Numbered from the stretch's first letter, positions 7,185-24,186 are shown. The stretch is 60,232 bases of DNA from Candidatus Hydrothermales bacterium (GCA_039630575.1 JBCNUW010000012.1:1-60232); one strand, 5' to 3'. Numbers and translations: made by a program. The notes: generated by a model from the sequence alone, not told the origin.

Positions 7185-7213
7185 TTGAAAAAACATGATT
7201 CACAAAATAAAAT
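7185..7213 (+). promoter_or_regulatory. sigma70-like promoter TTGAAA-N17-TAAAAT for trpB2
   Basis: Hexamers at 7185-7190 and 7208-7213. Confidence 0.5.
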
Positions 7214-7222
7214 ACAAGTATT

Positions 7223-7366
7223 ATGCTGACAAACATATTTAAAAATTATTTTCGGCATATACATTATCCAAAAATACATAAACCCTTTCTTTTTAATTTA
7301 AAAAGTTCCTTCTATTTCAAAATCAACTTCTTTTATTCTATAATTAAAAAAAGGAGTGAAAAATGA
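7223..7366 (+). CDS. Putative 47-aa upstream ORF coupled to trpB2
   Basis: Open frame MLTNIFKNYFRHIHYPKIHKPFLFNLKSSFYFKINFFYSIIKKRSEK*; its TGA overlaps the trpB2 ATG (ATGA). Confidence 0.3.
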   Translation: MLTNIFKNYFRHIHYPKIHKPFLFNLKSSFYFKINFFYSIIKKRSEK

Positions 7367-8658: not shown

Positions 8659-8922
8659 ATTCTTTTAAAATTTATTGAAATTCCGAGATCGCTTTTTTGA
8701 ATTGAAAAGTTCTATCGGTTTTAATTATTAACTTATTTTACAGCTATTTCACAAAAATCAATTTATAAGTACAACAACCAAAAAAATTTATATATTTTGA
8801 AACTCTTATAAAATTTAAAATATACAAAGTGTAGTAGAAAACCTAACAAAAAATTAAAGGTAAAAAATAAATTCATCGTATTTTTTAAAAAACATACAAC
8901 CAGATTATTTATTTTCCCTTAT

Positions 8923-8978
8923 AAAGGACAATTTCTTATTATACTTAATTGTCCTTTGATATCTTGTGGCAGTATAAT
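8923..8978 (+). promoter_or_regulatory. Inverted repeat AAAGGACAATT-N13-AATTGTCCTTT overlapping promoter TTGTCC-N18-TATAAT
   Basis: Perfect 11-bp arms at 8923-8933 and 8947-8957; TATAAT at 8973-8978; upstream of the 9055 gene. Confidence 0.55.
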
Positions 8979-9054
8979 TTATGGTATTGGAAAAACACCT
9001 AAATAAATGAAAAGTTTCCCTTTATAAGCTCTATCATTTTTAAGGAGGTTAAAA

Positions 9055-11271
9055 ATGATTAAAGCAATTTATCTTTTAACTTTAATTCAACTGAAAGAAG
9101 AAGTGATTCTTAAAAAGCTTACCCCTAAAGTTGATGGAATTGTTTCTTATGAAGAATGGGCTAAAGAAGCTGCGCTTTATAACTTCTTTGAGATTCAGCC
9201 AGAAGAGGGTAAAATTCCTCCATTTAAAACAGAAGCCTATACAGGTTATGACAATGAAAATCTTTATTTTGCTTTTAAATGCTATGATGATATAAAGACT
9301 ATTAGAAAGACTCTTACAAAAAGAGATGAAGTAGTGATGAATGATATGTTGGTAATTTATCTTGATACTTATGGAAAGGAAAAAGAAGGTTATATTTTTG
9401 GAACAAATCCATTAGGTGTCCAATTTGATGGAATTAAAGGACCTCCACCGCAAATGAATGAAGACTGGTCATTTGATACCTATTTTGAGGTAAAGTCCTT
9501 TATTTCTGATTCTTTCTGGTCCTGTGAATTTAAAATCCCCTTTTCATCTTTAAGATTTGAAAACAAAGATAAACAAGAATGGAATTTAATACTTATAAGA
9601 ATAAGACCAAGGGAAACTTTCACAATTTATTCATTTCCTTTAGTTTCAAAAAATATTCCTTCCTTTTTTGGGCAAGGTGCAAAGATAATAATTCCTGAAA
9701 AGATTTATTCAAAAGAAAAAAAGAACGATTTTATTCCCTATTTAATAGGTTCTCAGAGTGGAATAAGAAAAATAAATTATGAAAATGATAGAGGTAAATT
9801 TAATCTTGGTTTATCAGGGAAAGCAAGATTTTTACAGAATTTAGTTCTTGATTATGCCCTAAACCCTGATTTTGCTCAAATAGAGACAGATATTCCACAG
9901 ATAGATGTAAATACAACTTATGCATTGTATTATCCAGAGAAAAGACCACTTTTTATGGAAGGTTCAGAGTTTATAAAAATGCCCATTAATCTATTTTATA
10001 CAAGGATGGTTAATAATCCATTGTATGCATTAAAACTTACAGGAAAAGTTTCTATTTTTGATTTATACTTTCTTTCATCCTATGATGAGAATACTTTTTA
10101 TCTTTTGCCCTTTGAAGATGCAAGTTTTGATTTTTGTAGCAATAAAAAAAGTTTTATAAATCTCTTAAGGATTCGTTCAGAATTTTTAAACAAAGAATCC
10201 CATATAGGTATTTTTATAGGAGATAGAGAGGTAAAAAATGATGACTTCGATAATGGTTTTAATAGGATATTTGGATTTGATGCAAAGTTAAGATTTTTAA
10301 AACATTATACAATAAGTTATCATGGGGGATATTCCATTACAAAGGAGCCAGAAGACGCAAGTTTATTTAGTGGAATAGGTATAATCTTTAAAGATTATAC
10401 GGATAGATTTGATGGCGAAAAATTTTTAGGTTATGCAAATCGTTTAGTATTCAGCTCTTCATTCAAAAATTTACATTTTTCCCTATATTACGATGAATAT
10501 TCACCGACTTTCCGTTCAGATATAGGATTTATTAATGGAAACAATATAAGAGAAAGGGGGTTCAACATAAGCCCAATTTTTTATCCCAATAGATTTTATT
10601 TAACAGAGATTTCATTTTGGACAAGATATGAAAAAGAAACAAATTTTGAAAAAATATTTAAAGAAGAAGAGATAGAAGCTGGTTTTAATACAAAATTTTC
10701 CTTTGCTCAACTTGAACTTGGTTTTGAATATTCAAGGGAAAACGAGAATGTTTTTAACATTTATTTTCTTGATTATTCAAGGTTTAATAACATATATTTC
10801 TCTTCTTTTTGGTTAAAAGGGATGCCTTACAAATTCTTACTTTTCCATTTATACTATGGAGAAGGTAAAGATATATTTTATCAAGTTGATACACTTGTTT
10901 ACCAAAATGTTTTTTCAAGTAATATTAGTTTTTTATATACAAAATTAATTATTTCTTTAGGTTTAGAAAAACAAAATTTTTATTTTAAAAGATATAAAGA
11001 AAAGATAACAGAAGCCTCTGTCTTTTACTCTTCTTTAAATTATAGTTTTACTCAAAAGATTTCTTTGAGATTTACAATGTCATATTATAAAGGCTCAATT
11101 GGAATCTATCCCTTATTCACCTATCAAGTTAATCCCTTTACATTCTTTTATCTTGGTGCAAATGTAAATGCTTTTAAATACGGAGATTTATTTAAAGGCA
11201 AAAAACCTTTTAAATTGGAAGGAGAAGACCATCAGATATTCTTAAAATTACAGTATGTTTTTAAAATCTAA
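9055..11271 (+). CDS. CBM9-like + DUF5916 outer-membrane protein
   Basis: GYDNENLYFAFKCYD, WSCEFKIPFSSLRF, NPDFAQIETD, YPEKRPLFMEG, LFYTR; beta-barrel-like aromatic C-terminus; SD AAGGAGG. Confidence 0.8.
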   Translation: MIKAIYLLTLIQLKEEVILKKLTPKVDGIVSYEEWAKEAALYNFFEIQPEEGKIPPFKTEAYTGYDNENLYFAFKCYDDIKTIRKTLTKRDEVVMNDMLVIYLDTYGKEKEGYIFGTNPLGVQFDGIKGPPPQMNEDWSFDTYFEVKSFISDSFWSCEFKIPFSSLRFENKDKQEWNLILIRIRPRETFTIYSFPLVSKNIPSFFGQGAKIIIPEKIYSKEKKNDFIPYLIGSQSGIRKINYENDRGKFNLGLSGKARFLQNLVLDYALNPDFAQIETDIPQIDVNTTYALYYPEKRPLFMEGSEFIKMPINLFYTRMVNNPLYALKLTGKVSIFDLYFLSSYDENTFYLLPFEDASFDFCSNKKSFINLLRIRSEFLNKESHIGIFIGDREVKNDDFDNGFNRIFGFDAKLRFLKHYTISYHGGYSITKEPEDASLFSGIGIIFKDYTDRFDGEKFLGYANRLVFSSSFKNLHFSLYYDEYSPTFRSDIGFINGNNIRERGFNISPIFYPNRFYLTEISFWTRYEKETNFEKIFKEEEIEAGFNTKFSFAQLELGFEYSRENENVFNIYFLDYSRFNNIYFSSFWLKGMPYKFLLFHLYYGEGKDIFYQVDTLVYQNVFSSNISFLYTKLIISLGLEKQNFYFKRYKEKITEASVFYSSLNYSFTQKISLRFTMSYYKGSIGIYPLFTYQVNPFTFFYLGANVNAFKYGDLFKGKKPFKLEGEDHQIFLKLQYVFKI

Positions 11272-11540
11272 TCTTTAAAAAGAAGGTTTTTCCACATAAG
11301 AAAAAGTATTAGGAATTGATATAATAAAAAAATAAGGTAAATTCTTTACGAGGTATGTCAAATAGCATCACAAGTTAGGTTGTAAATGAAATTCTTTAAA
11401 TTAAACATGTAAAAGCAAAATTTTAGAACTTAAAAATTATTAAGGACAATTAAATTTAAAATTCCTTATTATTTGGAGAGAAACCAAAAATTAAAACTTA
11501 CTTTTTTTAAAAATTATATAAATTGCTCTATAATTCAAAT

Positions 11541-11861
11541 ATGGAGATAGCGCTTTCAATAATAGGTTCTGGAGTTACCTTTTTAGCAGTTGCTGTCACA
11601 TATCTTGCCTGGAGAAATAGAAAAATTACAAGAGAAAATACTTTAAAAATTGTTGAAGAAATGCGTAAAGGATTTGAAAGGACTCATGAAGAGATTAAAA
11701 TGGGATTTGAGAAGATGGAAAAAGAGTTTGAAAGGATACATACTGAGATTAAAATCGGGTTTGAGGGGATGCATGAAGATTTAAAACTTATCGCACTTTT
11801 AATTCTTGAAGAAACAAAAGAGGAAAAAGAAAAACTTGCAAAAAAAATTCTAAGAGAATAA
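11541..11861 (+). CDS. Small membrane-anchored coiled-coil protein with short internal repeats
   Basis: N-terminal TM helix; repeats GFERTHEEIK / GFEKMEKEFERIHTEIK / GFEGMHEDLK; ATG at 11541 lies 6 nt after TATAAT. Confidence 0.7.
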   Translation: MEIALSIIGSGVTFLAVAVTYLAWRNRKITRENTLKIVEEMRKGFERTHEEIKMGFEKMEKEFERIHTEIKIGFEGMHEDLKLIALLILEETKEEKEKLAKKILRE

Positions 11862-11866
11862 AAGGA

Positions 11867-12592
11867 GTGTATAAAAAAATAATTAAATTGTTACTCTTTG
11901 GAGTAATAAATATGTGAAATCTCAGCGGAAAAAAACCAGAAAGTAGGAGAAGCATCTTCATGGCTTAGAGGTGATCAATTTGACAGATTTAAAAACCTAC
12001 AAATTTTTATTAGGTGTGGTGTGGATATTTTAAATGTCTTAGATCCTAAAAAAACCAGTTAAAATCGGAGAAATTCATACAAGAGGTGTAGTTTATAAAC
12101 TATTTTATCATCAATCAACTTAAAACTTTACATTGCAGCAGGTATGGAAAGTATTGAGATATGGGATCTTTCACAAGCTACAAATCCTATAAAACTTTAA
12201 TTATTATTTCACACCTGGCTATGCTGTTGGTGTTTATGTTCTGACGATTGTGCTTATGTTGCTGATAATGAAACCGGCTTACAGATTTATTAACTCCTTT
12301 AAGTAAATACAGAAGAAAATACTCATCCAAGTATAAAAAGTGTAAAGTTATTAAAGAATCCTGTTAAAAATAAGATTGAACTTGAGCTAAATTTAAAATG
12401 TAACAAAAAAAATTTGTTATTGAACTTTATAATGTCCTTGGCAAAAGGATTAAAACTTATAATCTACTTGGATCTTATAGTGGCAAAGTTTTTCTTAACA
12501 TAGACAAAATTCCATCTGGTATCTATTTCTTAAAGAGTAGTAAAGAAATTCCAACTTGTTATAAAGTGGTAATTAAAGGTAGGTCAAATTAG
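11867..12592 (+). pseudogene. Decayed LVIVD-repeat protein with T9SS-type C-terminal sorting domain
   Basis: Fragments broken by stops and frameshifts: GVDILNVLDPK, LYIAAGMESIEIWDLSQATNPIKL, TPGYAVGVYV, AYVADNETGLQIY, then NPVKNKIEL..ELYNVLGKRIK..IPSGIYFLK..KVVIK. Confidence 0.75.
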
Positions 12593-12862
12593 GGTTAAGC
12601 TCATAGTTTTACATATCCTTATAGTAAGTTAATCTCCTTATCCCTTTTTACTTTTACCCCTTAAAAACTAAATCATATATTTCTTTTTATCAGCGCAACG
12701 TTCCAAATATGTCTCCATCCAAACTACTTTTAGACAATAAATCAGAAGTTGCCAGCAAGATCTTTATCATAGAGTTTGTTTTAGATATAAACACATTCAA
12801 GTAAACTTTCTGGAATAATTTTTCTCCCTAATTTTTCTCGATATTTTCTTAAAATTTAGATC

Positions 12863-13885
12863 TTAACTTATATAATCCTTTAAATTTTTAACAATATCTT
12901 TTAACGGTTTTACCTTAAACCATTCCCTTTCTGTTAACTCATTTGCGTAAGCTTTATATATATCCTCTATCATTTTTTTTAACTCAAAAGGTAAGTTGGG
13001 AGGCAAAATTTCCACATGTTTTTTCCAGTTTATCCTGTCTATCTCTTTCGCCTTTTCAACTTTCTCATACCATTCGGTTTTTCTATAAAATATTCTCGCT
13101 ATCTCTTTACTTAAATGAATTCCCTCATAGGTAAAACGGCACTCATCAAGTGTACCAATCGCATCTACAACTATTAAATTTCTATTCTCATCAAAACCAA
13201 ATTCAAATTTACCATCTTCGTTTGAAAGGTAAATTCTTTTTACTTCATCAGTAATTAAATTGTTTATAAAAAGAGTCTTTGTCTTTATCTCTTCTATTTC
13301 TTCATCTTTCAGAGCAGCAATCTTTTTAGCTTCACTCAAATTAATATATCTATCTGTTATTTCAAGTTTTGTTGATACATCGATCAAAGGACTACTTAGT
13401 CTATCTCCTGGTTTTGGCATCTCTTTCAAACCAATATCCTCAAGTCTTAACTTACCCTCTTTTAGCCTCTTAAAGACTGATGAACCCTCAGGAAGTGAAT
13501 TTCTGTAAATTATCTCAAGGGGTATTAAAAAGTTACCCTTTTCTTTTTCATAAATTGAATAATCGTAAATTCCCTCCCTAATTTCTGGTTTTAAAACCCT
13601 TAGTAGTTTTATTTCCATAACACTACAAGGATCCTTTAAATCTTTGAGTCTCTTTAAAGTACCATTTTCAAGAAGTCCTATGTAATGAGTTTTAATACCC
13701 ATCTCTTCAAGTTTTTCAAAAAAGTAAGCAGTTACTATACATGTGGCTTTCCCTTTACCATCTATATGATCAGGCATTTCACCCCAATCAAAAACAGAGT
13801 ACCTATCTGAAAATTCAAATCTTCCAATACCAGAAATTTGATTCTCGGGCTTTTTAATTATCATCAAATCTTTTACACTACCCAT
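12863..13885 (-). CDS. purC: SAICAR synthase (long, archaeal-like type)
   Basis: MGSVKDL, FSDRYSVFDWG, PLEIIYRN, STKLE, DGKFEFG, DAIGTLDECRF; adjacent to purE. Confidence 0.92.
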   Translation of the reverse strand: MGSVKDLMIIKKPENQISGIGRFEFSDRYSVFDWGEMPDHIDGKGKATCIVTAYFFEKLEEMGIKTHYIGLLENGTLKRLKDLKDPCSVMEIKLLRVLKPEIREGIYDYSIYEKEKGNFLIPLEIIYRNSLPEGSSVFKRLKEGKLRLEDIGLKEMPKPGDRLSSPLIDVSTKLEITDRYINLSEAKKIAALKDEEIEEIKTKTLFINNLITDEVKRIYLSNEDGKFEFGFDENRNLIVVDAIGTLDECRFTYEGIHLSKEIARIFYRKTEWYEKVEKAKEIDRINWKKHVEILPPNLPFELKKMIEDIYKAYANELTEREWFKVKPLKDIVKNLKDYIS

Positions 13886-13888
13886 AGT

Positions 13889-14359
13889 TTAACTCCCTAT
13901 AAGCTCTCTGTCAGACTCTTCAATTTCTTTTATTTTAACTTCTTTATATTTTCTTAACTTTTCCTCCAGATTTTTATCTTTCATAGCCATTATTTTTAGA
14001 GTCGCCAAAGCGGCTCCTTCAGGTTCCAGGACAGTTAAAGGTGCAACACCAGATGGCATTCTTAAACTTGAAAATATATCTACACCACTAAACTTATCAC
14101 TGTATGGTGGAGCTGCTATACATGGTTTTGTAGTGTTAGCATCAACAAATCCACTTAAAGCGTTGCTCCTTCCTGCCACAGTAATAAACACAACATCTTG
14201 ATTTTCGTATTCTTTTAAAATCTCTAAAACTTTCAAAGGGGTTTTGTGAGCTGAAGCAATCCTTAGAACACAATCAACACCAAACTCCTTTAATTTGTTA
14301 AGTATTTTTATTGCATGATCATAATCAGCCTTTGATCCCATTATAATTATAGCTTTCAT
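13889..14359 (-). CDS. purE: AIR carboxylase / N5-CAIR mutase
   Basis: IIMGSKAD, IASAHKTP, AGRSNALSG, SSLRMPSGV. Confidence 0.93.
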   Translation of the reverse strand: MKAIIIMGSKADYDHAIKILNKLKEFGVDCVLRIASAHKTPLKVLEILKEYENQDVVFITVAGRSNALSGFVDANTTKPCIAAPPYSDKFSGVDIFSSLRMPSGVAPLTVLEPEGAALATLKIMAMKDKNLEEKLRKYKEVKIKEIEESDRELIGS

Positions 14360-14427
14360 ATATTTCCTCTTTTTAATTTTTTAGTATATAATTAATTAAA
14401 ATTAAAATTCAACTTTCATATAACGAT

Positions 14428-14937
14428 ATGAATAACTCTCAATTTGCAATTGTTATGAGAGGGGCTCCACGAGCAGGTAAAACAGTTATTTCTAAAAAAA
14501 TCTTCGAAAACCTTAAAGAAAAAGGAGTAATATTAGTTCAATACGATGAAATTTTTAAAATTAAAAAAAATTTTGAAAAAAATAGAATAAGATTTTCAAT
14601 CTTCTATGAGATTGTAAAAAAACTATTAAAAGAGGGATACTCCCTAATTCTTGATTACTCGTTCACCCATAGAAACGAATTGATGAAAATTTTAAAATAT
14701 ATAAAGAAAAAGAAAATAAGATACAGAATTTATCTTTTAAACCCTCCCTTTGAAACCCTTTTAGAAAGAGACAAAAAATCTATTGAACCAAAGGGAGAAG
14801 AAAAACTTCTTAAATTTTATAATAGACTTTTAAAAAACATAAATCCATGCTCAATAACAATAGATACAGCTAAATTATCTGAAGAGGAGTCTTTAGAATT
14901 AATCTTAAAAGATTTAAAAGAAAATGATATTATTTAA
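14428..14937 (+). CDS. P-loop small-molecule kinase (AAA_33 / NMP-kinase-like)
   Basis: GAPRAGKT Walker A, LILD Walker B, LLERD lid motif, IDT C-terminal strand. Confidence 0.75.
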   Translation: MNNSQFAIVMRGAPRAGKTVISKKIFENLKEKGVILVQYDEIFKIKKNFEKNRIRFSIFYEIVKKLLKEGYSLILDYSFTHRNELMKILKYIKKKKIRYRIYLLNPPFETLLERDKKSIEPKGEEKLLKFYNRLLKNINPCSITIDTAKLSEEESLELILKDLKENDII

Positions 14938-15577
14938 AGCACACCCTGACTCAAAACCAAAAGACGGAATAATCTCAAAATACTTAAACAGATACATCTC
15001 CTCACTCTTTACAAAAATTATAATTAAAACAAACATAACTCCTAATAGGATAACTTTTATTTTCCTTATAATATTCTCAAGTTTACTTATTTTATCAGGA
15101 ATACTTAAAAGTGTTTTTTTAACCGGGCTTTTTTATCAACTTGCATCAATTTTTGATGGTGTTGATGGAGAACTTGCAAGAAAGAAAAAACTCAGCTCAC
15201 AAGGTGGAGCACTCCTCGATACAGTATGCGACTACACAATTGACTCTATCGCTGCCTTTTCTTTTGGCTTATCCCTTACAAAATATAAAATAAATAATAT
15301 CATTATTCTTTTCACTGTCTCATTTACAATCACAACAAGACTTATTACCCAGTTCATAGTTAAAAATACAAGGGGTTTCAAAAGACACCTAGTAAGGGAT
15401 ACAAGGGATATCGTGGTTTTTGTTATATTTATATTTTCTATCTTAACAGAAATCTTTAAAAATCCCTACATCATGATTTTGGGACTGATACTTGTAAACA
15501 TATGGAGATGGGATAACGGAATTTATAGGTTGCATTGCTTTATAAAAAGTGAAAAAATAAATTCTCCTCAAAATTAA
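14924..15577 (+). CDS. CDP-alcohol phosphatidyltransferase, DIPP-synthase-like
   Basis: DGVDGELARKK..S..GALLDTVCD signature; N-terminal DGIISKYLNRYIS..ITPNRIT and a TRD motif as in DIPPS domains. Confidence 0.8.
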   Translation: MILFKAHPDSKPKDGIISKYLNRYISSLFTKIIIKTNITPNRITFIFLIIFSSLLILSGILKSVFLTGLFYQLASIFDGVDGELARKKKLSSQGGALLDTVCDYTIDSIAAFSFGLSLTKYKINNIIILFTVSFTITTRLITQFIVKNTRGFKRHLVRDTRDIVVFVIFIFSILTEIFKNPYIMILGLILVNIWRWDNGIYRLHCFIKSEKINSPQN

Positions 15578-16041
15578 ATTCTTTTTACCCAAATCTCCTT
15601 TGACTCTCCCTCTGCATAAAAATCTTTAATTTCAGCCTCCCTTTCAAAACCCATCTTCCTATAAAACGATCTTGCTCTTTTATGTCTGGCCTGCGTCTCC
15701 AAAACAATCAACCTCGCATTCCTCACTTTAACTTCTCTAAAAAATTCCTCCCAAAGGATTTGAGCAACACCTTTACCATAAAACTCTGGATCAACTGCTA
15801 TCCACAAAAGCTCTATAACAGAATCAGCAAGAAGATTTTCTGAAAAGAATATAAATCCTATGAGTCTTTCATCCTCAAATATACCTAACCCCTCGTACTC
15901 ACCCCTTTCTATTCCATCAAAAACGTAAAGACAGGTTTTTCTATCCCTCTCTAAAAATTCCTCTGTTTTATTTACTATCTCCTCAACAAAACGCCTATGC
16001 CCATTGAAAATCTTAGATATTTTTAATTCCTTTACTTTCAT
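15574..16041 (-). CDS. GNAT N-acetyltransferase
   Basis: WIAVDPEFYGKGVA acetyl-CoA motif, ARSFYRKMGF, IKDFYAEG. Confidence 0.88.
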   Translation of the reverse strand: MKVKELKISKIFNGHRRFVEEIVNKTEEFLERDRKTCLYVFDGIERGEYEGLGIFEDERLIGFIFFSENLLADSVIELLWIAVDPEFYGKGVAQILWEEFFREVKVRNARLIVLETQARHKRARSFYRKMGFEREAEIKDFYAEGESKEIWVKRI

Positions 16042-17012
16042 AACCTCCTCATTAAAGCCCTCTCTATTAGTCTTTCAATAAAAACACTATAAGGAATACC
16101 AGCATAATTCAAAGCTTTATAAAAACCAGAATCAACAGAGATATCGGGATTCGGATTTGCCTCAATAAAGTAAATTTCACCACTTTTATTCATCCTTAAG
16201 TCTATCCTACCGTAATCCCTCATTTCAAGTATTTTAAAAACTTTCAGTGAAAGACTTTTAATCTCCCCTATTTTATCCTCTTCAAGTTGAGCAGGATAGA
16301 TAACAGGCGTTAAATGGTATTCTTCACTTTTTTTGTTCCACTTTGAATTATAGGTTAAAATTCTTGGTTCTGTCTTAAAAATAACCTCACCTATCCCTAT
16401 TACTCTATCCTCAAAAATAGAAACATTAAACTCTCTACCATCTATGTACTCTTCAGCAAAAAACTCGACATCTAATTTTTTTATCTCTTCTAAAATTTTA
16501 AAATAATCATCCCTTTCATAAATTACATTTTTTTTCTCAATAAAAAGACTAGAATCACATCTTATAGGTTTTAAAATTAAAGGTAAAAATTTTATCTGAT
16601 CTGAATCAGGCAAGAAAAAAGAAGGTGTTTTTATACCGTAAAAGGAAACCAAAATTTTTGCCTTTATCTTATCTAAACAGATTGAAAAACTCCTTGGCGG
16701 TGAACCTGTATAAGGTATTTTAAATGCCTCAAGTACACCAGCAACCCAGCTCTCCCCCTCTGGATTACCCTCAAAATCTTCACAGAGATTAAAAACAACA
16801 TCAAAATCCTTTTTTCTTAACCTGTCTATCCATAAATAACTTTCATCTACTGGGAGCAAAAAATAGCTATAAGATAAATTCTCTAAAACTCTCTTGACTG
16901 CATTTACCTCATCATAGACACTCTCCCTATCAGGCTTATCTCTATATCTTGAACTGTTAAATAGTAAACAAACTCTTAACTTATTTTTTAATACCATACC
17001 TCTCAAAAGCAC
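16038..17012 (-). CDS. ATP-grasp ligase, D-Ala-D-Ala ligase-like (copy 2)
   Basis: VFNLCE, PYTGS, DKIKAK, EEYIDGREFNV, DYGRIDLR, IEANPNPD; start may be 16997. Confidence 0.85.
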   Translation of the reverse strand: MLLRGMVLKNKLRVCLLFNSSRYRDKPDRESVYDEVNAVKRVLENLSYSYFLLPVDESYLWIDRLRKKDFDVVFNLCEDFEGNPEGESWVAGVLEAFKIPYTGSPPRSFSICLDKIKAKILVSFYGIKTPSFFLPDSDQIKFLPLILKPIRCDSSLFIEKKNVIYERDDYFKILEEIKKLDVEFFAEEYIDGREFNVSIFEDRVIGIGEVIFKTEPRILTYNSKWNKKSEEYHLTPVIYPAQLEEDKIGEIKSLSLKVFKILEMRDYGRIDLRMNKSGEIYFIEANPNPDISVDSGFYKALNYAGIPYSVFIERLIERALMRRL

Positions 17013-17973
17013 TATCTAATATCATTCTTATTATTTCACTATAGGTAAATCCCTTCTTGTAAGCCATTATAGGAAAATCACTTGTCTCAGGATTTAACCC
17101 TGGAAGTGGATTTATCTCAAGAAAATAAGGTCTTAAATCCTCATCAAGTCTAAAATCAAATCTTGAAAAATCTCTCAAATTTAAATATCTAAATAACTTT
17201 AAAACATATCTTTTTATCTCCTTTAATACATCCTCTGGTATTTCAGGCGGTACAATATATTCAACTTCTTCTTTAAAATTTCTTTTTATCTCTAAAGAAT
17301 AAAGGAAATTAGAAAGCTCTAATCTCTTTGGCCTTAATTCCATAAAGCCCAAAAATTTAACTTTTTCATTACCTATAATTCCAACCGTAATCTCTTTTCC
17401 AGAAATAAATTTCTCTACAAGAATCTCCTCGTTATAAATATCAAAAAGCTCCAAAGCCTTTTCCCTTAACTCCTCTATACTGTTTACCTTTGAAGATAAC
17501 CTTAAACCTATACTGGAACCCTCGTTTTTTAATTTCAAAACACAAGGGAAACTATTAAATTTAAAATTTTTAATGTCACTTTTATTTTTAATAACCTTAA
17601 AGTAAGGTGTCCTAATATTCAAAGATTTTGCAAACCTCTTACAAAGTTCCTTATCAAGAGTTACGCTCAAAGCTAAAGGATCAGAACCTGAATAGGGTAT
17701 GTTAAAAATTTCACAAATAGATGGAATATGCCCCTCTCTTGATCTTGTTCCAAAACCTTCAGCTATATTGAATACAAAATCAGGCTTATCCTTTAAAATT
17801 TTTTCAATAAAACTTTTTCCGCTCCCAAGATAAATAACTTCAAATCCAAAACTCTTTAAAACTTTTCCTATTGAATCAACAGTTTGCTCTGAATCGAATT
17901 CTTCAAAAATGTCCTCCGGTAAAGAATCAGGTATTTCTTGGGGTTTCAAATCAAAAGCAACACCTATCCTCAT
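16981..17973 (-). CDS. ATP-grasp ligase, D-Ala-D-Ala ligase-like (copy 1)
   Basis: VFNIAEG..SRE, PYSGSD, EGSSIG, EKFISGKEITVG, RFDFR, LEINPLPGL. Confidence 0.87.
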   Translation of the reverse strand: MRIGVAFDLKPQEIPDSLPEDIFEEFDSEQTVDSIGKVLKSFGFEVIYLGSGKSFIEKILKDKPDFVFNIAEGFGTRSREGHIPSICEIFNIPYSGSDPLALSVTLDKELCKRFAKSLNIRTPYFKVIKNKSDIKNFKFNSFPCVLKLKNEGSSIGLRLSSKVNSIEELREKALELFDIYNEEILVEKFISGKEITVGIIGNEKVKFLGFMELRPKRLELSNFLYSLEIKRNFKEEVEYIVPPEIPEDVLKEIKRYVLKLFRYLNLRDFSRFDFRLDEDLRPYFLEINPLPGLNPETSDFPIMAYKKGFTYSEIIRMILDSAFERYGIKK

Positions 17974-18002
17974 AAATTTTAAATACTATTTTAAATCTTA
18001 AC

Positions 18003-19328
18003 TTATTTTCTACCTCTCCTTCTTTCCATCCTAATCACACCCTCTGGAACTAAATAACTTCCCTCACCTTTAATAAGTCCATACACACCCTCCTTACTTA
18101 AATACTCTGATTTTTCTCTACTCTTTTCATTATTCCAGGAATAGGAAACTATCATACCTTCGTAATTCCTTAAAATAACTTTTTCATCTGAGAGTGATAT
18201 AATGTAGTTCGGCATAACCGGAATTTTACCTCCTCCATAAGGTGCATCTACAACATAGGTGGGTATTGCAAGCCCTGAAACATGTCCCCTTAAAGATTCC
18301 ATTATTTCTATTCCTTTATAAACTGAAGTTCTAAAATGAGATACACCTTTTGTAGGGTCACAGTGAAAAAGGTAATATGGTCTTACCTTTATTTTCAAAA
18401 GACTTTTTAAAAGATCTCTCATAGTCTCAACATCATCATTTATTCCCTTTAAAAGAACAGCTTGATTGTTAACTGGTATCCCACATTTTAAAAGATTTAA
18501 AACTGCTTTTTTTGAAATCTCTGTTATTTCATTAGGATGATTAAAATGGGTATTTAGCCAAAGAAAATCATAACTTGAAAGAAGTTTTAAAAGTTCCTCA
18601 TCAAAAAGTCTCATAGGAAGAGTTACAGGAACTCTTGAACCTAACCTTACAACTTGAATTGATGGTATTTTACTTAGTCCATCAAGAATAAACTTTAGCT
18701 TCAGCAAAGGTAATGTCAAAGGATCACCACCTGAAAGTATAACTTCATTTATCTCTGGATGTTTTTTAAGATAGTCTTGTACCTTATCAAACTCACCGTA
18801 AAGTCTTATAGTTCCACCTTTTCCAAGCAACCTTTTTCTTGTGCAATGTCTACAATAAGTTGTGCAGAAGTTTGTTGTTATTAAAAGAGCTCTATCAGGA
18901 TACCTATGTATAAGTCCTGGAGCAGCTTCATCCTCCTCTTCTTCGAGAGGATCCCTTAAACCTCTTTGATCTTTAATTTCAAGAATTGTTGGAATAGCTT
19001 GCTTTCTAATAGGATCGTCGGGATCATTAGGATTTATGAGAGAAAGGTAATATGGAGAAATGAGAATTGAATAATTTCTTGCAACAAGCCTTATCTCTTT
19101 TTTCTCCTTTTCACTCAAAAAGGGGAAAGCTTCAAAAAGTTGTTCAGCTGTTCTGATTAAATTTTTTATCTGCCATCTCCAATCATAGAAAACTTCAGGT
19201 GGAATATCTCTATAAAGAGGATACCTTTGCCAGAAAAGTTTTTCTTCGGTATTTAATGAAGTACCTATAGGGGGAGGTTCTTCCCCCCTTAAGGTTTCCT
19301 TATTTTTTTCCTCCCTTTTTATTTCCAT
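18003..19328 (-). CDS. kamA: KamA-family radical SAM lysine 2,3-aminomutase-like enzyme
   Basis: HRYPDR, CTTYCRHC, SGGDPL, NTHFNHP, NQAVLL, RPYYLFHCD, GGGKIP (PLP lysine). Confidence 0.9.
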   Translation of the reverse strand: MEIKREEKNKETLRGEEPPPIGTSLNTEEKLFWQRYPLYRDIPPEVFYDWRWQIKNLIRTAEQLFEAFPFLSEKEKKEIRLVARNYSILISPYYLSLINPNDPDDPIRKQAIPTILEIKDQRGLRDPLEEEEDEAAPGLIHRYPDRALLITTNFCTTYCRHCTRKRLLGKGGTIRLYGEFDKVQDYLKKHPEINEVILSGGDPLTLPLLKLKFILDGLSKIPSIQVVRLGSRVPVTLPMRLFDEELLKLLSSYDFLWLNTHFNHPNEITEISKKAVLNLLKCGIPVNNQAVLLKGINDDVETMRDLLKSLLKIKVRPYYLFHCDPTKGVSHFRTSVYKGIEIMESLRGHVSGLAIPTYVVDAPYGGGKIPVMPNYIISLSDEKVILRNYEGMIVSYSWNNEKSREKSEYLSKEGVYGLIKGEGSYLVPEGVIRMERRRGRK

Positions 19329-19356
19329 ATTTTCCCTTTTAAAAGTTATATTTTAC

Positions 19357-19430
19357 TTAACAAAATTTTCAGTTAATAATAATAAAATAAAAAAAGAAAT
19401 TTGTCAAGAGTCTGTGGAAAACTTTAAAAT
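19357..19430. promoter_or_regulatory. Overlapping divergent promoters with a candidate operator
   Basis: Minus strand TTGACA(19407-19402)-N17-TATTAT(19384-19379) toward kamA; plus strand TTGTCA(19401)-N18-TAAAAT(19425) toward the regulator; TTAAC-N10-GTTAA dyad at 19357-19376. Confidence 0.6.
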
Positions 19431-19436
19431 AATTAT

Positions 19437-19997
19437 ATGTCTTTTGAAAGGGAAATTGGTGAGAAAATAAGAAAATTGAGAAAAGCTGAGGGAATAACTT
19501 TAAATGAACTTGCTTTAAGATCAGGAGTTACAAAATCTGCACTTTCTCAAATTGAAAGAGGTAAAATAACCCCCACAATTTTAACATTTAAAAATATACT
19601 TGATGCTCTCGGGTTATCCTTCTCTGAATTTTTTGAAAGAGAAGAAAAGGGATTTTTCTTTAAATTCGATAAATTAAACTATAAGTATATTGAAAAGGAA
19701 AATGTTAAAATTTTACTGTTAACACCCTTTGGTGGTAATAAATCCTTTGACATACTTAAGATTGAGATTCCACCTTTCACTTCAACAAGACCTGAAACAC
19801 CTCATGAGGGAGAAGAAGGAGGTTTTGTTTTAAAAGGTGCTGTGTTTTTTCAGTTTGGAAAAAAGAAATTAAAAGTTTTAAGAGGAGAAAGTTATTATTT
19901 TTATCCTGACAAGGTTCATTTCTTCGAAAACCGCTCAAAAAATAAATCTGCAGTTCTTATCCACATTGTTTCTCCCCCCAATATTGATATATTTTAA
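19437..19997 (+). CDS. XRE-family HTH + cupin transcriptional regulator (PuuR-like)
   Basis: LNELA.RSGVTKSALSQIERG HTH; HEGEEGGFVLKG..H.FEN cupin. Confidence 0.88.
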   Translation: MSFEREIGEKIRKLRKAEGITLNELALRSGVTKSALSQIERGKITPTILTFKNILDALGLSFSEFFEREEKGFFFKFDKLNYKYIEKENVKILLLTPFGGNKSFDILKIEIPPFTSTRPETPHEGEEGGFVLKGAVFFQFGKKKLKVLRGESYYFYPDKVHFFENRSKNKSAVLIHIVSPPNIDIF

Positions 19998-20003
19998 AAA
20001 TTT

Positions 20004-21239
20004 TTATCTTGTTAAAAATTTTGATAATAAATACTTTACAATAAATAGCATCGCCCTTTTTGTTGGCATGATTTTCCCCACATTAAATTTGGGCAAATAA
20101 AGAGCAATGAAAAATCTAAAAAGAAAGGAGAGAAAAAAAGAAAACTTAATCCCCACCTCCTCATTAATAAAGCACTTTACTAAAAAACCCCCGATATTGT
20201 TTCCTATAAAACTACCTATTCCTCCAACAGTAAGAAAAACAACCTGATAGATTGGATTTTTAATGAGCATTAAATTAATGTAAGAATGGGCAAGATTTAT
20301 TCCAGACCAACCAAAAGTACTTAAAAAACCATCTAAATATATAAAATACCACATCCAAGCAGGTCTTATTATCCAAATTAATGGAATAGTTGTAATGAAA
20401 AAAAGATTTATTTTTAGTGTTGCTCTTGGAGAAATCTTTTCTATAAACTTACCCCAAAAGGGCTGAAAAACAGCGCTCCCTAATCCCATAGATACAGTCC
20501 AAAGTGCTATCTCAAAATTTTTTAACTTCATATACTTAACAGCATAATAACCAAACATTGGAGCAGTTATGTTTATTAAAAGATTAAAAATAAAAATATA
20601 AAATATAAACACCATAAACTCCTTATCAGTTGCTACCTCTTTTAAATAATCTTTTAAATTGAACCTTTCCTCTAACTTAATTTCATCTTGAAAAAGGTAA
20701 AGAATCAAAGATAAAAGCGAAAGCAAAAAAAGAATAAAAAAAAGAGACTTAAAACCTACTTTTTCAAAAATCAAACCAACAATAAAAAAAGATATTGACT
20801 GAAAAAATGTTATAACACCTAATCTTGTTCCAAGATATTCACCCTTTCCTGACTCTAATTTTTTTAAAATATTTGAAAACCAAAAACTCCAGGCTGTTGA
20901 AGAGATATTTAAAAAAAGACCTGAAAGAAATATTACTAAAAATAGTATTTTTACATTCCAGAAAATCTCAAAGAGAAAAATAACCCATATACCTCTTGAT
21001 ATAAAACCTGTTATCCCAGCAATGATCATAGGTCTTTTTAAAATCAAAAGAAAAAAAATTGAAACAAAGGTAAAAACAAAAGAAATATTGAAAAGAGAAC
21101 TCATAAAGGCAACCTCTTGAGCTAAAGCACCTATCTTTACAGCAAAAGCAGTAATAAAAACACCATTTGATATTCCAAAATGAATACCAGAAATAACTCC
21201 CTCAACAAGTGAAATATTCAAATTTTTCCTTATATTCAT
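20004..21239 (-). CDS. MFS transporter
   Basis: About 12 hydrophobic segments in two halves; QPFWGKFIEK motif A-like. Confidence 0.8.
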   Translation of the reverse strand: MNIRKNLNISLVEGVISGIHFGISNGVFITAFAVKIGALAQEVAFMSSLFNISFVFTFVSIFFLLILKRPMIIAGITGFISRGIWVIFLFEIFWNVKILFLVIFLSGLFLNISSTAWSFWFSNILKKLESGKGEYLGTRLGVITFFQSISFFIVGLIFEKVGFKSLFFILFLLSLLSLILYLFQDEIKLEERFNLKDYLKEVATDKEFMVFIFYIFIFNLLINITAPMFGYYAVKYMKLKNFEIALWTVSMGLGSAVFQPFWGKFIEKISPRATLKINLFFITTIPLIWIIRPAWMWYFIYLDGFLSTFGWSGINLAHSYINLMLIKNPIYQVVFLTVGGIGSFIGNNIGGFLVKCFINEEVGIKFSFFLSFLFRFFIALYLPKFNVGKIMPTKRAMLFIVKYLLSKFLTR

Positions 21240-21285
21240 CGTTTATCCTATAATTATAAACAAACGTTTAAAAAGGAGGGGAAAA

Positions 21286-22005
21286 ATGAAGATAAAAGTT
21301 TTTCTCTTGGTTGCAATCACAATGTATGCTCACCATTCTAAGGAATATATAGCTCTTGAATCATATTCTACATGTGCAAAAAACGAAAAAATCTTTCACC
21401 TTATATACGATTACTATGTTGAAAATAAAGATAATCCAGATTTTGACCATTGGGAACTTACTCCTGGTTTTTCTTATGGAATAACAGATCATATAATGTT
21501 TGGAGCACATACTCATTTTGCAAAGTTTGGAAAAGCCTTTACACTAAATGAAAGTGAACTTTCACCCTTAATTGAAGCAGCCAACTTTGCCATCCAAATA
21601 AGACTCAAAAGTTTAGGATTCCTGAATTTGGCTTTCCTTTTTTCTTATGAGATCCCCTCTGATAGAAGCAGAAAATACCTTGATGGTAAAGAAGTTATTG
21701 AGGGAAAAATAATATTAAGTAAAAATTTTTTAACTCACTCAAATATATCCGTTAATTTTTCCTTTGCTAAAGAAGGTAATGAATTTATAAAAGAATGGGC
21801 ATTAGGAATTAAAAATCCCCTATCAGCTGATCCCCATGGTATTGCAGGTGGAATTGAAATCTTAGGAGACTATAATAACGCTTTCTTTTTACTTCCAGCC
21901 ATTTATTTTCCAATTGAACGCTCCATAATAAAAACAGGAATCGGTTTTGGAAACCAAAAAACAACTTATCTCAGAGCTAACATTTCTCTTATGTATATCT
22001 TTTAA
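21286..22005 (+). CDS. Putative small outer-membrane beta-barrel heading the Ni/Co uptake operon
   Basis: Signal peptide ending MYA|HH, amphipathic beta strands (FSYGITD), terminal Phe (MYIF); SD AGGAGG. Confidence 0.55.
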   Translation: MKIKVFLLVAITMYAHHSKEYIALESYSTCAKNEKIFHLIYDYYVENKDNPDFDHWELTPGFSYGITDHIMFGAHTHFAKFGKAFTLNESELSPLIEAANFAIQIRLKSLGFLNLAFLFSYEIPSDRSRKYLDGKEVIEGKIILSKNFLTHSNISVNFSFAKEGNEFIKEWALGIKNPLSADPHGIAGGIEILGDYNNAFFLLPAIYFPIERSIIKTGIGFGNQKTTYLRANISLMYIF

Positions 22006-22009
22006 AAAA

Positions 22010-22573
22010 ATGAAAAAAATACCTCTTATCTTAATTTTTAGCTTTTTATACTCTCATGACTTCTGGATAGAAATTTCAAATCCATTTCCAGTAGAAAAAG
22101 AAAAAATTAACATCTTCTTAAAGGGAGGTCATAAACTATTTGAATCTGAAATTGTTCCAAAGGAAAACCTTCTAAAAGAATTTGGGGTAAAAAAACCATC
22201 CGGTGAAGAAATCAAACTTGAATATAAAAGGGAAAAAAAATACATAATTTCGGAATTTACACCTGATAAAGAAGGAACTTACCTTGTTTTCTTTACCCTC
22301 TCAAGAGGAGATGAAGTATTTTATATTGGTAAAAGCTACTTCTATGTAAGAAAAATTACTGATTTTATAAATTTTGGGTATGATTTTGAAATTAATATAG
22401 AAAACTTTGAATTTAAGGAGAGTGAAATTAAATTTAAACCCTCCAATTATGAATTTCTAAACGAAAAAGGGAAAGGTTATTTTAGAGATTTTTATAAATC
22501 TAAAAAAGGACTAAATTTAATAATTAAAAGAAAAAACGGAAAGGTATGTACATTAACTTTTTACTCACAATAA
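22010..22573 (+). CDS. DUF4198-like periplasmic Ni/Co uptake protein
   Basis: Signal peptide followed by HDFWIE, GGH, FTPDKEGTY; likely start 22010. Confidence 0.65.
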   Translation: MKKIPLILIFSFLYSHDFWIEISNPFPVEKEKINIFLKGGHKLFESEIVPKENLLKEFGVKKPSGEEIKLEYKREKKYIISEFTPDKEGTYLVFFTLSRGDEVFYIGKSYFYVRKITDFINFGYDFEINIENFEFKESEIKFKPSNYEFLNEKGKGYFRDFYKSKKGLNLIIKRKNGKVCTLTFYSQ

Positions 22574-22962
22574 AAATTTTTTCACATGGAATAGGTTATG
22601 AATTTTTTGAGAATGCAAAAGGATTAAGATTTTTTTACGAAGATAAAACACCACTATCTTTAGCAGAGTATAAAATTTATTCTCCCGATGGAAAAATATT
22701 CTCAGAGGGAAAACTCGATAGAAACGGAAGAGTTTTATTTTTACCTAATAAAAAAGGAAAATGGAAAATAGAAATTGACGATGGAATGGGGCATGGAATT
22801 GTTAAAGAAATTATGATTGAAAATTTAGAGAAGGATCCTTTTTTAAATAACAGAATTTCATTTAATTCTAAATTAGTTTTAGGACTTTCAATTATACTTA
22901 TGTGCTCTGGAATCACCTTTTACATTCTTGCTTACAGAAAGTTAAAAAATGCACATTCCTGA
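22546..22962 (+). CDS. CbiL/NikL-like accessory component of Ni/Co ECF transporter
   Basis: SHG start, G.LDRNGR..FLP..G.W.IE.DDGMGHG, C-terminal TM helix. Confidence 0.65.
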   Translation: MYINFLLTIKIFSHGIGYEFFENAKGLRFFYEDKTPLSLAEYKIYSPDGKIFSEGKLDRNGRVLFLPNKKGKWKIEIDDGMGHGIVKEIMIENLEKDPFLNNRISFNSKLVLGLSIILMCSGITFYILAYRKLKNAHS

Positions 22963-23578
22963 TGGTTTTTTAGATACAAAAACACTTTTTATAACGAACA
23001 CAGTTTCCTATTTAACCTTTTTTTATTCTGGAAGAAAAATATTAAAAAAAATAGAGGCTGAAAGAGTTCCTATACTTGGTCTATCGACAGCCTTTATTTT
23101 CTTAATAAGTAGTATAAGTTTTCCTTTGCCCTTTGGAACATCAATTCACCTACTTGGCAGTTTCTTCATTTCACTTATCCTTGGACCCTTTTCAGCTTTT
23201 TTTATAAATTTTTTATCACTTTTTCTTCAATCTCTTTTACTTTCCCATGGTGGAATCCTTACACTTGGTGCAAATTCAATAAACATTGCTTTTTCAAGTT
23301 GTATTTTAGGTTTCTATTTTTATAAATTTTTAATAAGAATTTTACCAAATTTTGAAAACTTTATTATATTTATTATAACTATTTTTACAGCTTTTATTGG
23401 TAGTTTTCTTTTAACCTTAGAACTCAATTTTTCAGGAAAAATCTCCTTTCAAAAAAGTTTTCTCCCAATAATCTCTTTTCATTTAGTTTCTGGCTCATTT
23501 GAAGGTCTATTTACAGTTTTTCTTATCAATTTCATTAAAAAGTTAAAGCCTAAACTTTTAGAAGTTGAAAAAATATGA
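22949..23578 (+). CDS. cbiM: Ni/Co ECF transporter S component
   Basis: MHIPDGFL N-terminus, GTSIHLLG, HGGILTLGAN. Confidence 0.9.
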   Translation: MHIPDGFLDTKTLFITNTVSYLTFFYSGRKILKKIEAERVPILGLSTAFIFLISSISFPLPFGTSIHLLGSFFISLILGPFSAFFINFLSLFLQSLLLSHGGILTLGANSINIAFSSCILGFYFYKFLIRILPNFENFIIFIITIFTAFIGSFLLTLELNFSGKISFQKSFLPIISFHLVSGSFEGLFTVFLINFIKKLKPKLLEVEKI

Positions 23579-24186
23579 AACATCATTTTATCGATAGATT
23601 TGCCTACGAAAGGGGTTTCTTACAAGCATTATCCCCTATAATTAAGTTTATAACTCTTATTTTTTTTCTTTTCCTTTTAATTATCTTGTCCCCAAATTTG
23701 TACTTTTACTTTACTATATCTTTAATTTTGTTAATTTTACTTTTCATATCAAAAATTCCTTTTTTTTACTTTTTAAAAAGAATCATACTAATAACACCCT
23801 TTTTAGCAGTAATATTTTTTCTTTCCCTTTTAAGTCATAAGAATCTTTCACAATTTTTTCTTGCTTTGATAAGGTCGGTACTTTCTCTTTTTGGTGTAAT
23901 TCTTTTCCTTTCAACTACTAAAACTGAAGAATTTATAAAGATTTTTGAGAAAGTTCCTTACGGCAACTTGATATCTCTAATTTTTTCTTTTTTATACCGT
24001 TACTTTTATATACTTGAAGATGAATTACAAAAAATGAAAAGGTCGATGATTTCAAAAGGTAAAAAGCTCGATTTTAAAAGTTATCTTATATTATCAGGTT
24101 TATTGTTTTTAAGATCCTATGAAAGATCAGAAAGGGTTTTAAAAGCTATGATTTCAAAGGGATGGAACATAGAAAGGTTAAAATAG
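23575..24186 (+). CDS. cbiQ: ECF transporter T component
   Basis: YRYFYIL.DE...M, LFLRSYERSERV..AM.SKG. Confidence 0.85.
   Translation: MKHHFIDRFAYERGFLQALSPIIKFITLIFFLFLLIILSPNLYFYFTISLILLILLFISKIPFFYFLKRIILITPFLAVIFFLSLLSHKNLSQFFLALIRSVLSLFGVILFLSTTKTEEFIKIFEKVPYGNLISLIFSFLYRYFYILEDELQKMKRSMISKGKKLDFKSYLILSGLLFLRSYERSERVLKAMISKGWNIERLK

Follow-up and report, generated by a model that had tools for sequence, protein, structure and literature searches.

A Lysine 2,3-Aminomutase-Family Operon with Two Ddl-Like ATP-Grasp Ligases in a Candidatus Hydrothermales Bacterium, a Candidate β-Lysine Amide Pathway

The KamA-Ligase Operon

A stretch of 60,232 nucleotides from a hot-spring Candidatus Hydrothermales bacterium (GCA_039630575.1 JBCNUW010000012.1:1-60232; hereafter the window) carries a compact operon encoding a KamA-family 2,3-aminomutase of the radical S-adenosylmethionine (SAM) and pyridoxal phosphate (PLP) type, two ATP-grasp ligases resembling D-alanine-D-alanine ligase (Ddl), here called Lig1 and Lig2, and a small GNAT N-acetyltransferase (Table 1). 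On balance, and with moderate confidence, this four-gene cassette is read as an intact representative of a biosynthetic module that is widespread but uncharacterised and that would lead, in modular fashion, to an N-acetylated β-lysine di- or triamide.

A sequence-only reading of the window had proposed a kamA-ligase-ligase-GNAT operon, divergent from an XRE-cupin regulator gene and adjoined by a gene for an MFS transporter, and the layout of the open reading frames (ORFs) together with their Pfam and NCBIfam families bears this out. Only 29 nt separate kamA from lig1, the lig2 and lig1 frames overlap by 32 nt from the listed GTG start, and the GNAT gene overlaps lig2 by 4 nt. The XRE-cupin gene is transcribed away from kamA across a 108-nt spacer, and the MFS gene lies 6 nt beyond it. 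The window has a G+C content of ~30%, and the closest protein relatives of the window genes are from organisms named Candidatus Hydrothermales or candidate division WOR-3.

Table 1. Genes and control elements of the cassette, with a cassette-linked protein of another lineage; coordinates are those of the window unless a locus is named.
Feature	Position	Strand	Remarks
KamA-family radical-SAM/PLP 2,3-aminomutase, operon gene 1	18003-19328	-	441 aa; Radical_SAM and LAM_C
Lig1, Ddl-like ATP-grasp ligase	16981-17973	-	330 aa; Dala_Dala_lig_C
Lig2, second and more divergent Ddl-like ATP-grasp ligase	16038-17012	-	324 aa; Dala_Dala_lig_C
Small GNAT N-acetyltransferase, last gene	15574-16041	-	155 aa; Acetyltransf_1
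XRE-HTH and cupin regulator	19437-19997	+	186 aa; HTH_3 and Cupin_2
MFS transporter	20004-21239	-	411 aa
Divergent control region between kamA and XRE-cupin gene	19329-19436		Conserved in six WOR-3 relatives
Imperfect palindrome ACTTAA-N7-TTCAGT, candidate operator	19355-19373		Sequence reading, relatives compared
~580-aa GNAT/amidohydrolase-like protein, Dehalococcoidales	L070:10658-12397	+	Equivalents in L029, L060, L064, L077

Ligases Distinct from the Cell-Wall Ddl

All of the solved relatives nearest to the cassette ligases are Ddl or VanA enzymes. Both proteins nevertheless fall well under the cut-off of the Ddl model TIGR01205 (245.65 bits), with scores of 161.4 bits for Lig1 and 114 for Lig2; a canonical Ddl encoded elsewhere in the genome (contig C14) exceeds it at 299.7 bits. 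Aligned with this Ddl, each cassette ligase shows a nine-residue gap exactly opposite CGGTSGEKE, a deletion of the GGxSxE motif that agrees with the earlier remark that an N-terminal GG.S.E motif is missing. The His of the Ddl segment NILHG is Glu in both ligases (E72 in Lig1). The omega-loop, AKY in the genome's own Ddl, reads IKR in Lig1 and SKW in Lig2, the Tyr being replaced by R231 and by Trp, respectively. The GGxSxE motif and the Lys-Tyr pair of the omega-loop are what we take to be functional features of Ddl.

Other parts of the active site are retained. The omega-loop Lys is kept in both ligases, as are the Arg, Asp, Glu and Asn of the Mg/phosphate site (R271, D273, E286 and N288 in Lig1; R269, D271, E284 and N286 in Lig2). 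Among 80 Lig1 sequences R231 is 70-89% conserved, and it is invariant in a 21-sequence set. The Lig2 family keeps K148, R269, D271, R273 and N286, with E284 in at least 90% of the larger set and an invariant K224-W225 pair. Loss of the motif combined with retention of the catalytic residues indicates that Lig1 and Lig2 are active-looking ATP-grasp ligases other than D-Ala-D-Ala ligases. The objection that they simply make D-Ala-D-Ala is countered by the separate canonical Ddl, by the missing Ddl motif and by the altered omega-loop Tyr; judged by their sequences, Lig1 and Lig2 are not the housekeeping cell-wall enzyme.

Linkage and Gene Fusion across Phyla

The 21-sequence Lig1 alignment was used as a seed against a collection holding one genome per species. 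At least 588 stretches contained a relative, and the best 80 loci were analyzed. A gene was scored as linked when a window protein matched a locus ORF by phmmer on the same strand and within 7 kb of Lig1; enough flanking sequence was available for 63 of the 80 loci. The sources of these 80 loci include Chloroflexota/Dehalococcoidia, Planctomycetota, 'Deltaproteobacteria'/Thermodesulfobacteriota (Desulfobacterota-type), Omnitrophota, Dadabacteria, Margulisiibacteriota, Krumholzibacteriia, Nitrospirota, Bacillota and WOR-3. KamA is linked to Lig1 in 65 loci (54 of the 63 with enough flank), Lig2 in 58 (48 of 63), and GNAT in 42 (34 of 63). All four genes occur together in 39 of the 80 loci, or 34 of 63. 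The rest of the 63-locus set comprises 13 loci with KamA and Lig2 and no GNAT, seven with KamA and no Lig2, and eight with neither KamA nor Lig2. KamA-Lig1-Lig2-GNAT is the usual gene order, as it is in the window. Because the same gene set recurs in other phyla, the grouping is more than chance, and the suspicion that the four genes would not co-occur in other genomes is not borne out. All-vs-all clustering of ORFs in the 80 loci disclosed no further conserved partner, nothing beyond the ligases and KamA appearing in more than 15 loci, with an overlap filter crude enough that many GNAT ORFs were dropped and some antisense ORFs retained.

Gene fusions, as an independent line of support, connect the first ligase with the aminomutase. 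Among 16 long Lig1 relatives (E≤1e-30), 10 are fusions of KamA with a Ddl-like domain and two are double ligases. Three of the 10 KamA-ligase fusions, each with LAM_C, Radical_SAM and Ddl-like domains in one chain, come from named Thermoplasmatota archaea, and the arrangement of domains was verified in P0121 and P0128. These fusions tie the ligase directly to the aminomutase product.

The two ligases may also act together. The predicted complex of Lig1 with Lig2 scored 0.81, the best of three controls reaching 0.00; this mark is attained by 116 of 157 solved complexes and by 2 of 215 mismatched pairs. Prediction runs agree in at least 96% of contacts, the partners have pLDDT values of at least 85, and the predicted interface pairs residues 51-117 of Lig1 with 57-124 of Lig2, in helices of the N-terminal/central region. 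Together with the double-ligase fusions, the prediction makes a Lig1-Lig2 heterodimer a reasonable working model, short of a finding.

Several loci depart from the usual arrangement. In five 'Deltaproteobacteria' metagenome-assembled genomes (MAGs; L009, L015, L018, L046 and L059, at about 9000-12300), two-component genes split Lig1 from KamA-Lig2; the intervening genes encode a PAS histidine kinase, a sigma-54 response regulator and a lone receiver domain, and no GNAT was detected nearby. A Margulisiibacteriota MAG (L004:9021-12422, + strand) has KamA-Lig1 followed by a 328-aa protein with faint RimK/LysX matches only, an S66 LD-carboxypeptidase-family gene and an MFS transporter gene. In a Pseudobdellovibrionaceae MAG (L066:6969-9002, + strand), a 677-aa protein consists of two Ddl-like ATP-grasp halves, with no KamA in the 17-kb locus.

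This survey bears on the idea that the ligases serve the cell envelope, making a β-lysine dipeptide or side branch for peptidoglycan or another wall polymer. The kinship with Ddl/VanA counts in favor of such a role, an S66 LD-carboxypeptidase gene follows the cassette in the one Margulisiibacteriota locus, and the best PDB match of the GNAT, 2r7h at 45.7 bits, is annotated 'putative D-alanine N-acetyltransferase'. However, the 80 loci show no conservation of mur, fem or other genes for wall synthesis, and the cassette is frequent among Dehalococcoidia and occurs also in Thermoplasmatota, groups that include many members lacking peptidoglycan. With a normal Ddl in the genome and the D-Ala-binding features changed in Lig1 and Lig2, an envelope function appears very improbable.

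The Aminomutase and Its Substrate

KamA is the sole KamA-family gene in the genome. Among NCBIfam models it passes that of the KamA-family subfamily only (304.3 bits, cut-off 199.2), and it remains under the equivalog cut-offs for AblA (459.5 vs 525.4 bits), glutamate 2,3-aminomutase (420 vs 650) and arginine 2,3-aminomutase (372.8 vs 600), as well as that for EpmB (229.7 vs 369.3). Of the equivalog models, AblA gives the window protein its highest score, and it ranks first for seven of the eight relatives scanned, the exception being the Gln-variant L043.

Residue-level comparison was made with the lysine 2,3-aminomutase (LAM) of C. subterminale (2A5H), to which KamA aligns at 443 bits; numbering was checked on the printed alignment. 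The Fe-S cluster ligands are kept (C155/C159/C162, corresponding to C125/C129/C132 of 2A5H), as is the PLP lysine (K368 in YGGGK, corresponding to K337), and both the CxxxCxxC motif and this lysine are present in all 61 linked KamAs. The sequence-only reading had pointed to two preserved Asp positions, in FHCD and VVD, and these do align with D293 and D330 of 2A5H (D324 and D361 in KamA), R164 matching R134. In 2A5H, D293 and D330 presumably hold the ε-amine of lysine, and R134 its carboxylate. The equivalents of D293 and D330 are Asp/Asp in 59 of the 61 linked KamAs and Gln/Asp in two exceptions, from Nitrospirota and Brocadiaceae. The earlier statement that KamA lacks the C-terminal Zn cysteines is likewise upheld by the alignment, which shows none of the four: an Asp occupies the C268 position and the C375/C377/C380 stretch is Cys-free, these four residues being, we assume, the Zn site of the solved LAM. 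No Cys at all follows the PLP lysine in the window protein, as in 42 of the 61 linked KamAs.

These features suggest that KamA is probably a lysine 2,3-aminomutase, the conserved Asp pair favoring lysine-type substrates across the cassette family. The pathway could instead follow the same logic with a different basic amino acid, such as arginine or ornithine, in which case the product would not be based on β-lysine. Such a substrate would accord with scores under every equivalog cut-off, with an arginine model that still gives 372.8 bits and with the missing Zn site; moreover, Gln at the D293 position in 2 of 61 linked KamAs indicates that specificity varies within the module. Retention of the Asp pair and of the Arg134 equivalent, and the first rank of AblA for the window KamA and most of the relatives scanned, speak against it and leave this alternative with a low probability.

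The aminomutase and first ligase also appear to vary in concert. A short KamA with a gap in the GGGK loop is paired with a Lig1 lacking R231/D299 in three of three loci (the two Gln/Asp loci and a Bacillota locus), with no exception in 56 loci having a full-length KamA and an R231/D299 Lig1; the sample is small and its sequences related. Such pairing would be expected if the binding pocket of Lig1 followed what the aminomutase produces.

In this second class of pair (L043, L045 and L057) the KamA gap amounts to two residues, and Gln stands at the D293 position in L043 and L057. The corresponding Lig1, found also in the Lig1-only Bacillota loci L047, L050, L051 and L063, has His, Ser or Cys for R231 and Leu or Ile for D299. 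The second-class pair probably has a different substrate.

Distribution within the Phylum

Lig1 (E≤1e-50) was found in 15 of 201 sampled genomes of the phylum, in families at 4/5, 5/5 and 3/3 and rarely elsewhere, a patchy distribution that marks the cassette as an accessory rather than a housekeeping trait. Within the genus, the arrangement MFS / XRE / KamA-Lig1-Lig2-GNAT is fully syntenic in all three relatives compared (L101-L103). The sister family keeps XRE-KamA-Lig1-Lig2 and has no close GNAT anywhere in three genomes, the best match being 39 bits vs 217-271 bits within the genus. In a third family the set is reduced to KamA-Lig1, with no Lig2 orthologue; there a Lig2 query matches Lig1 and one weaker second protein, probably the normal Ddl. 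These three grades point to a core of KamA and Lig1, with Lig2 as an extension and GNAT as a cap, and the gradation fits stepwise elaboration of one scaffold.

One further locus, L104 (G083:C12, ~6929-9491), from a relative within the same taxonomic order, has a KamA match split over ORFs 8144-9121 and 9078-9491, ~1.2 kb between the KamA match and Lig1, and no GNAT after Lig2; it may represent a disrupted copy or an insertion.

The Acetyltransferase

In NCBIfam the GNAT matches RimI best (56.5 bits, cut-off 86.4), a generic assignment. No β-lysine acetyltransferase (AblB-type) model, which NCBIfam presumably includes, is among its 16 NCBIfam matches at E≤0.01. Its weak PDB relatives are RimI, Naa30 and diamine/polyamine acetyltransferases.

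The RimI match raises the question of protein or peptide modification, in which β-lysine, with another residue, would be placed on a side chain or terminus and acetylated by the RimI-like GNAT, as an ATP-grasp alternative to EpmA/EpmB or to RimK tailing. ATP-grasp enzymes of other families do modify proteins, and no EpmA (TIGR00462) in the genome exceeds the cut-off, the highest score, 229.8 bits, falling in a 487-aa frame. Against this, occurrence in 15 of 201 genomes does not fit the modification of a translation factor, and KamA-ligase fusions exist in Thermoplasmatota; these archaea use aIF5A, not EF-P. In addition, no small substrate gene is conserved in the 80 loci, a cupin ligand-sensing regulator and transporters are better suited to small-molecule metabolism, and KamA lies much nearer AblA than EpmB. 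Modification of a protein is regarded as distinctly unlikely.

Evidence on the position of the acetyl group comes from about 10 Chloroflexota loci, in which a ~580-aa gene lies 3' of the cassette GNAT, directly in most cases and 2-4 kb downstream in L033 and L071. The C-terminal half of its product is nearest to acetylpolyamine amidohydrolases (APAH; 9gkz, 248 bits; 6phr, 239 bits), and the N-terminal 262 residues are GNAT-like (protein atlas 0.97, 207/256 features; a lead only). This neighbor suggests that the acetylated nitrogen is terminal and polyamine-like, for example the ε-amine of β-lysine, and that some lineages can take the acetyl group off again.

At its cassette, the window genome lacks a neighbor of this type. 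A deacetylase partner elsewhere in the genome was considered and rejected: the only HDAC-family gene (contig C89) resembles the cassette-linked APAH-like protein only locally (32% over 113 aa), is flanked by cytidylyltransferase-like and LpxC-FabA-type genes, and has no cassette link that could be found. The idea that the cassette product substitutes for polyamines was also dropped, since the genome, with two spermidine-synthase-like genes and an AdoMet decarboxylase, makes ordinary polyamines and does not need the cassette to replace them; a polyamine could still serve as the acceptor of a ligase. The window also holds a spermidine-synthase-family gene (27676-28209, - strand; 193 bits to PF01564), at a distance of ~8 kb from the operon.

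Regulation and Transport

The XRE-cupin protein is PuuR-like (77.9 bits, cut-off 211). Its gene adjoins kamA in WOR-3 relatives and lies upstream in the same orientation in five Deferrimicrobiaceae-type loci (L035, L036 and L038-L040); in other lineages a small winged-helix gene or a sigma-54 two-component system is found at the cassette. The spacer between the XRE-cupin gene and kamA is strongly conserved among the WOR-3 relatives. Its best promoter-like site for kamA, on the - strand, has TTGACA at 19407-19402 and TATTAT at 19384-19379 with a 17-nt spacer, matching 11 of 12 consensus positions. The palindrome sits over the predicted kamA transcript start, from which the leader would be ~45 nt, and in the two most distant relatives (G108 and L001) it takes the perfect form ACTTAA-N7-TTAAGT at the same place. 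It is a putative operator of the XRE-cupin protein. A riboswitch or leader RNA was rejected, as only two tRNAs reached the Rfam gathering score in eight diverse cassette loci (129 kb); nothing credible of an Rfam type was found at 11000-24000 of the window at E≤1.

The window MFS protein has a match in 4 of the 80 loci, and unrelated MFS genes adjoin the cassette in L004 and L045. The links to XRE-cupin and MFS genes are lineage-specific and outside the conserved core, the MFS association being confined to the genus. These transporters invite the proposal of a secreted bioactive made as an acetylated pro-form, in which a cationic β-lysine peptide comparable to the streptothricin chain would be exported by the MFS protein and the GNAT would give self-protection. 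Faint matches of the GNAT to streptothricin acetyltransferases (E about 1e-3; 3pp9, E 0.0017), deacetylase/peptidase genes beside the cassette in some lineages, and the patchy occurrence within the phylum are in keeping with this. The GNAT matches are, however, far under any cut-off, the MFS linkage is not conserved, and vertical retention in whole families is unlike typical antibiotic clusters; nor is a resistance target or immunity gene apparent. A secreted bioactive is judged unlikely.

Neighboring Genes

Downstream of the operon, a CDP-alcohol phosphatidyltransferase gene (14924-15577, + strand), its start overlapped by an AAA_33 kinase-like gene (14428-14937, + strand), converges on the GNAT gene, with which it shares 4 nt at the 3' end of the latter. 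In NCBIfam the transferase matches best to the DIPP-synthase half of the bifunctional IPCT/DIPPS model (77 bits, cut-off 580), and an inositol-1-phosphate synthase is encoded on another contig of the same genome; the pair may take part in inositol-phosphate solute or lipid chemistry. Its synteny with the cassette holds within the genus only.

Beyond the MFS gene lie three overlapping genes (21286-23578, + strand): a 239-aa ORF for which neither Pfam nor NCBIfam gave a match at E≤0.01, and two others of 208 and 138 aa. The block runs into a membrane-protein gene at 22949-23578, labeled CbiM-like from a reading of the sequence alone, and is syntenic in the closest relative (L101).

A Proposed β-Lysine Amide Pathway

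The sequence-only reading had proposed that the operon makes a β-amino-acid peptide, and at the genomic level this is supported by linkage, by the KamA-Lig1 fusions, by the Asp pair and by the separate Ddl. In the pathway favored here, KamA would first convert L-lysine into β-lysine, as its conserved residues suggest. Lig1 would then make the first amide bond with β-lysine, a role indicated by fusion, linkage and co-variation; β-lysine is likely an intermediate that Lig1 handles directly. The likeliest route would be conversion of the β-lysine carboxylate to an acyl phosphate, in the way that Ddl activates D-Ala, followed by attack of the amine of a second amino acid, possibly another (β-)lysine. 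The replacement of the Ddl His by Glu in the first subsite makes a donor role for β-lysine attractive. The paralogue Lig2, probably within a Lig1-Lig2 heterodimer, would add a second amide bond, and the GNAT would acetylate a remaining free amine, probably a terminal and polyamine-like one. The product may be an intracellular solute that counters stress or balances charge, or it may be exported through the neighboring MFS protein. Repression of the operon by the XRE-cupin protein probably takes place at the palindrome and would be lifted when a small ligand occupies the cupin domain.

A broader proposal may be made more tentatively, with somewhat less than even confidence. Short β-lysine oligoamides, assembled free of the ribosome and of nonribosomal peptide synthetases (NRPS) by heterodimeric ligases derived from Ddl, would form an undescribed class of metabolite. 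Following the logic of PylB/PylC, made in three grades and bearing an acetyl on/off switch, they would be a common, overlooked polycationic or zwitterionic constituent of uncultured anaerobes and thermophiles. In this proposal the switch would be the GNAT, together with the fusion of GNAT and acetylpolyamine amidohydrolase seen in some phyla.

Several points weigh against the β-lysine amide pathway. Every chemical step of it is inferred from sequence, and Lig1 might take β-lysine as the amine acceptor instead of as the acyl donor. KamA, being below all equivalog cut-offs and missing the Zn site, could have a substrate other than lysine. Lig1 D299 was abandoned as a specificity marker, since the corresponding position of the genome's own Ddl also carries Ser-Asp. 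As solved Ddl enzymes form homodimers, the heterodimer score may reflect memory of, or likeness to, these structures; lineages that have Lig1 alone must use it otherwise than in a heterodimer. Since relatives can do without the GNAT and without Lig2, the end product varies between lineages. Cassette-bearing MAGs come from freshwater, marine and hot-spring settings with no obvious link to salt, so that a pure osmolyte role is not favored. Finally, the overall promoter scan gave no excess, with 22 sites vs 26.0 ± 4.6 in shuffled sequences.

In prokaryotes, β-lysine serves as an osmolyte precursor, in the modification of EF-P and as an antibiotic building block. Here it would be coupled to two dedicated Ddl-type ligases outside cell-wall synthesis, in a gene set kept in hundreds of species (at least 588 Lig1 relatives), mostly from uncultured phyla. 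No description of a set comprising an aminomutase and Ddl-like ATP-grasp ligases was found in the titles and abstract openings of the searchable literature. The cassette product could be a new stress solute or a polyamine-like compound. Its identity would give a function to many genes automatically annotated as 'D-alanine--D-alanine ligase', and would correct metagenome inferences that equate any kamA with N-acetyl-β-lysine synthesis.

Comparison with Known Systems

Lysine 2,3-aminomutase and a β-lysine N-ε-acetyltransferase, AblA/AblB in methanogens and KamA/YodP in Bacillus, are described as producing the solute N-ε-acetyl-β-lysine (PMC3543383). The cassette likewise couples, in one operon, a GNAT to a KamA-family aminomutase with the lysine-binding Asp pair. 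It differs in that two ATP-grasp ligases are inserted between them, in its short RimI-like GNAT, and in a KamA that is under the AblA cut-off and devoid of the Zn cysteines. Plain AblAB was rejected as an explanation on account of the inserted ligases and because an AblB-type match was not seen. The EpmB/EpmA system resembles the cassette in that a KamA-family enzyme feeds β-lysine to a dedicated ligase, the ligase there, EpmA, being a lysyl-tRNA-synthetase paralogue. EpmAB too was set aside, given the lack of an EpmA over the cut-off, the patchy distribution and the archaeal fusions.

With Ddl and VanA the cassette ligases share the ATP-grasp fold family (profile E 4.5e-42 to VanA), the catalytic Arg, Asp, Glu and Asn, the omega-loop Lys and, in the predicted cassette dimer, the use of N-terminal/central helices; they stand apart in scores far under Ddl cut-offs, in the deleted GGxSxE motif and in the His to Glu and Tyr to Arg or Trp replacements. 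Acetylated dipeptide solutes and ligases acting on β-amino acids have precedents elsewhere. In the Ngg/AsnO system a GNAT and an ATP-grasp ligase yield N-acetylglutaminylglutamine amide, and carnosine synthase is an ATP-grasp ligase that acts on a β-amino acid. Likened here by their general descriptions, both belong to other ATP-grasp subfamilies, have other substrates and involve no aminomutase.

A further parallel is with PylB/PylC of pyrrolysine biosynthesis, in which a radical-SAM lysine mutase yields an unusual diamino acid and an ATP-grasp enzyme links this product to another amino acid through an amide bond. PylB differs from the PLP enzymes of the KamA type, PylC is not among the solved relatives of Lig1 and Lig2 at E≤1e-5, and no PylD, tRNA or synthetase genes occur at the cassette. 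What the two systems would have in common is the order of the chemistry, a mutase acting on lysine first and an ATP-grasp ligase second.

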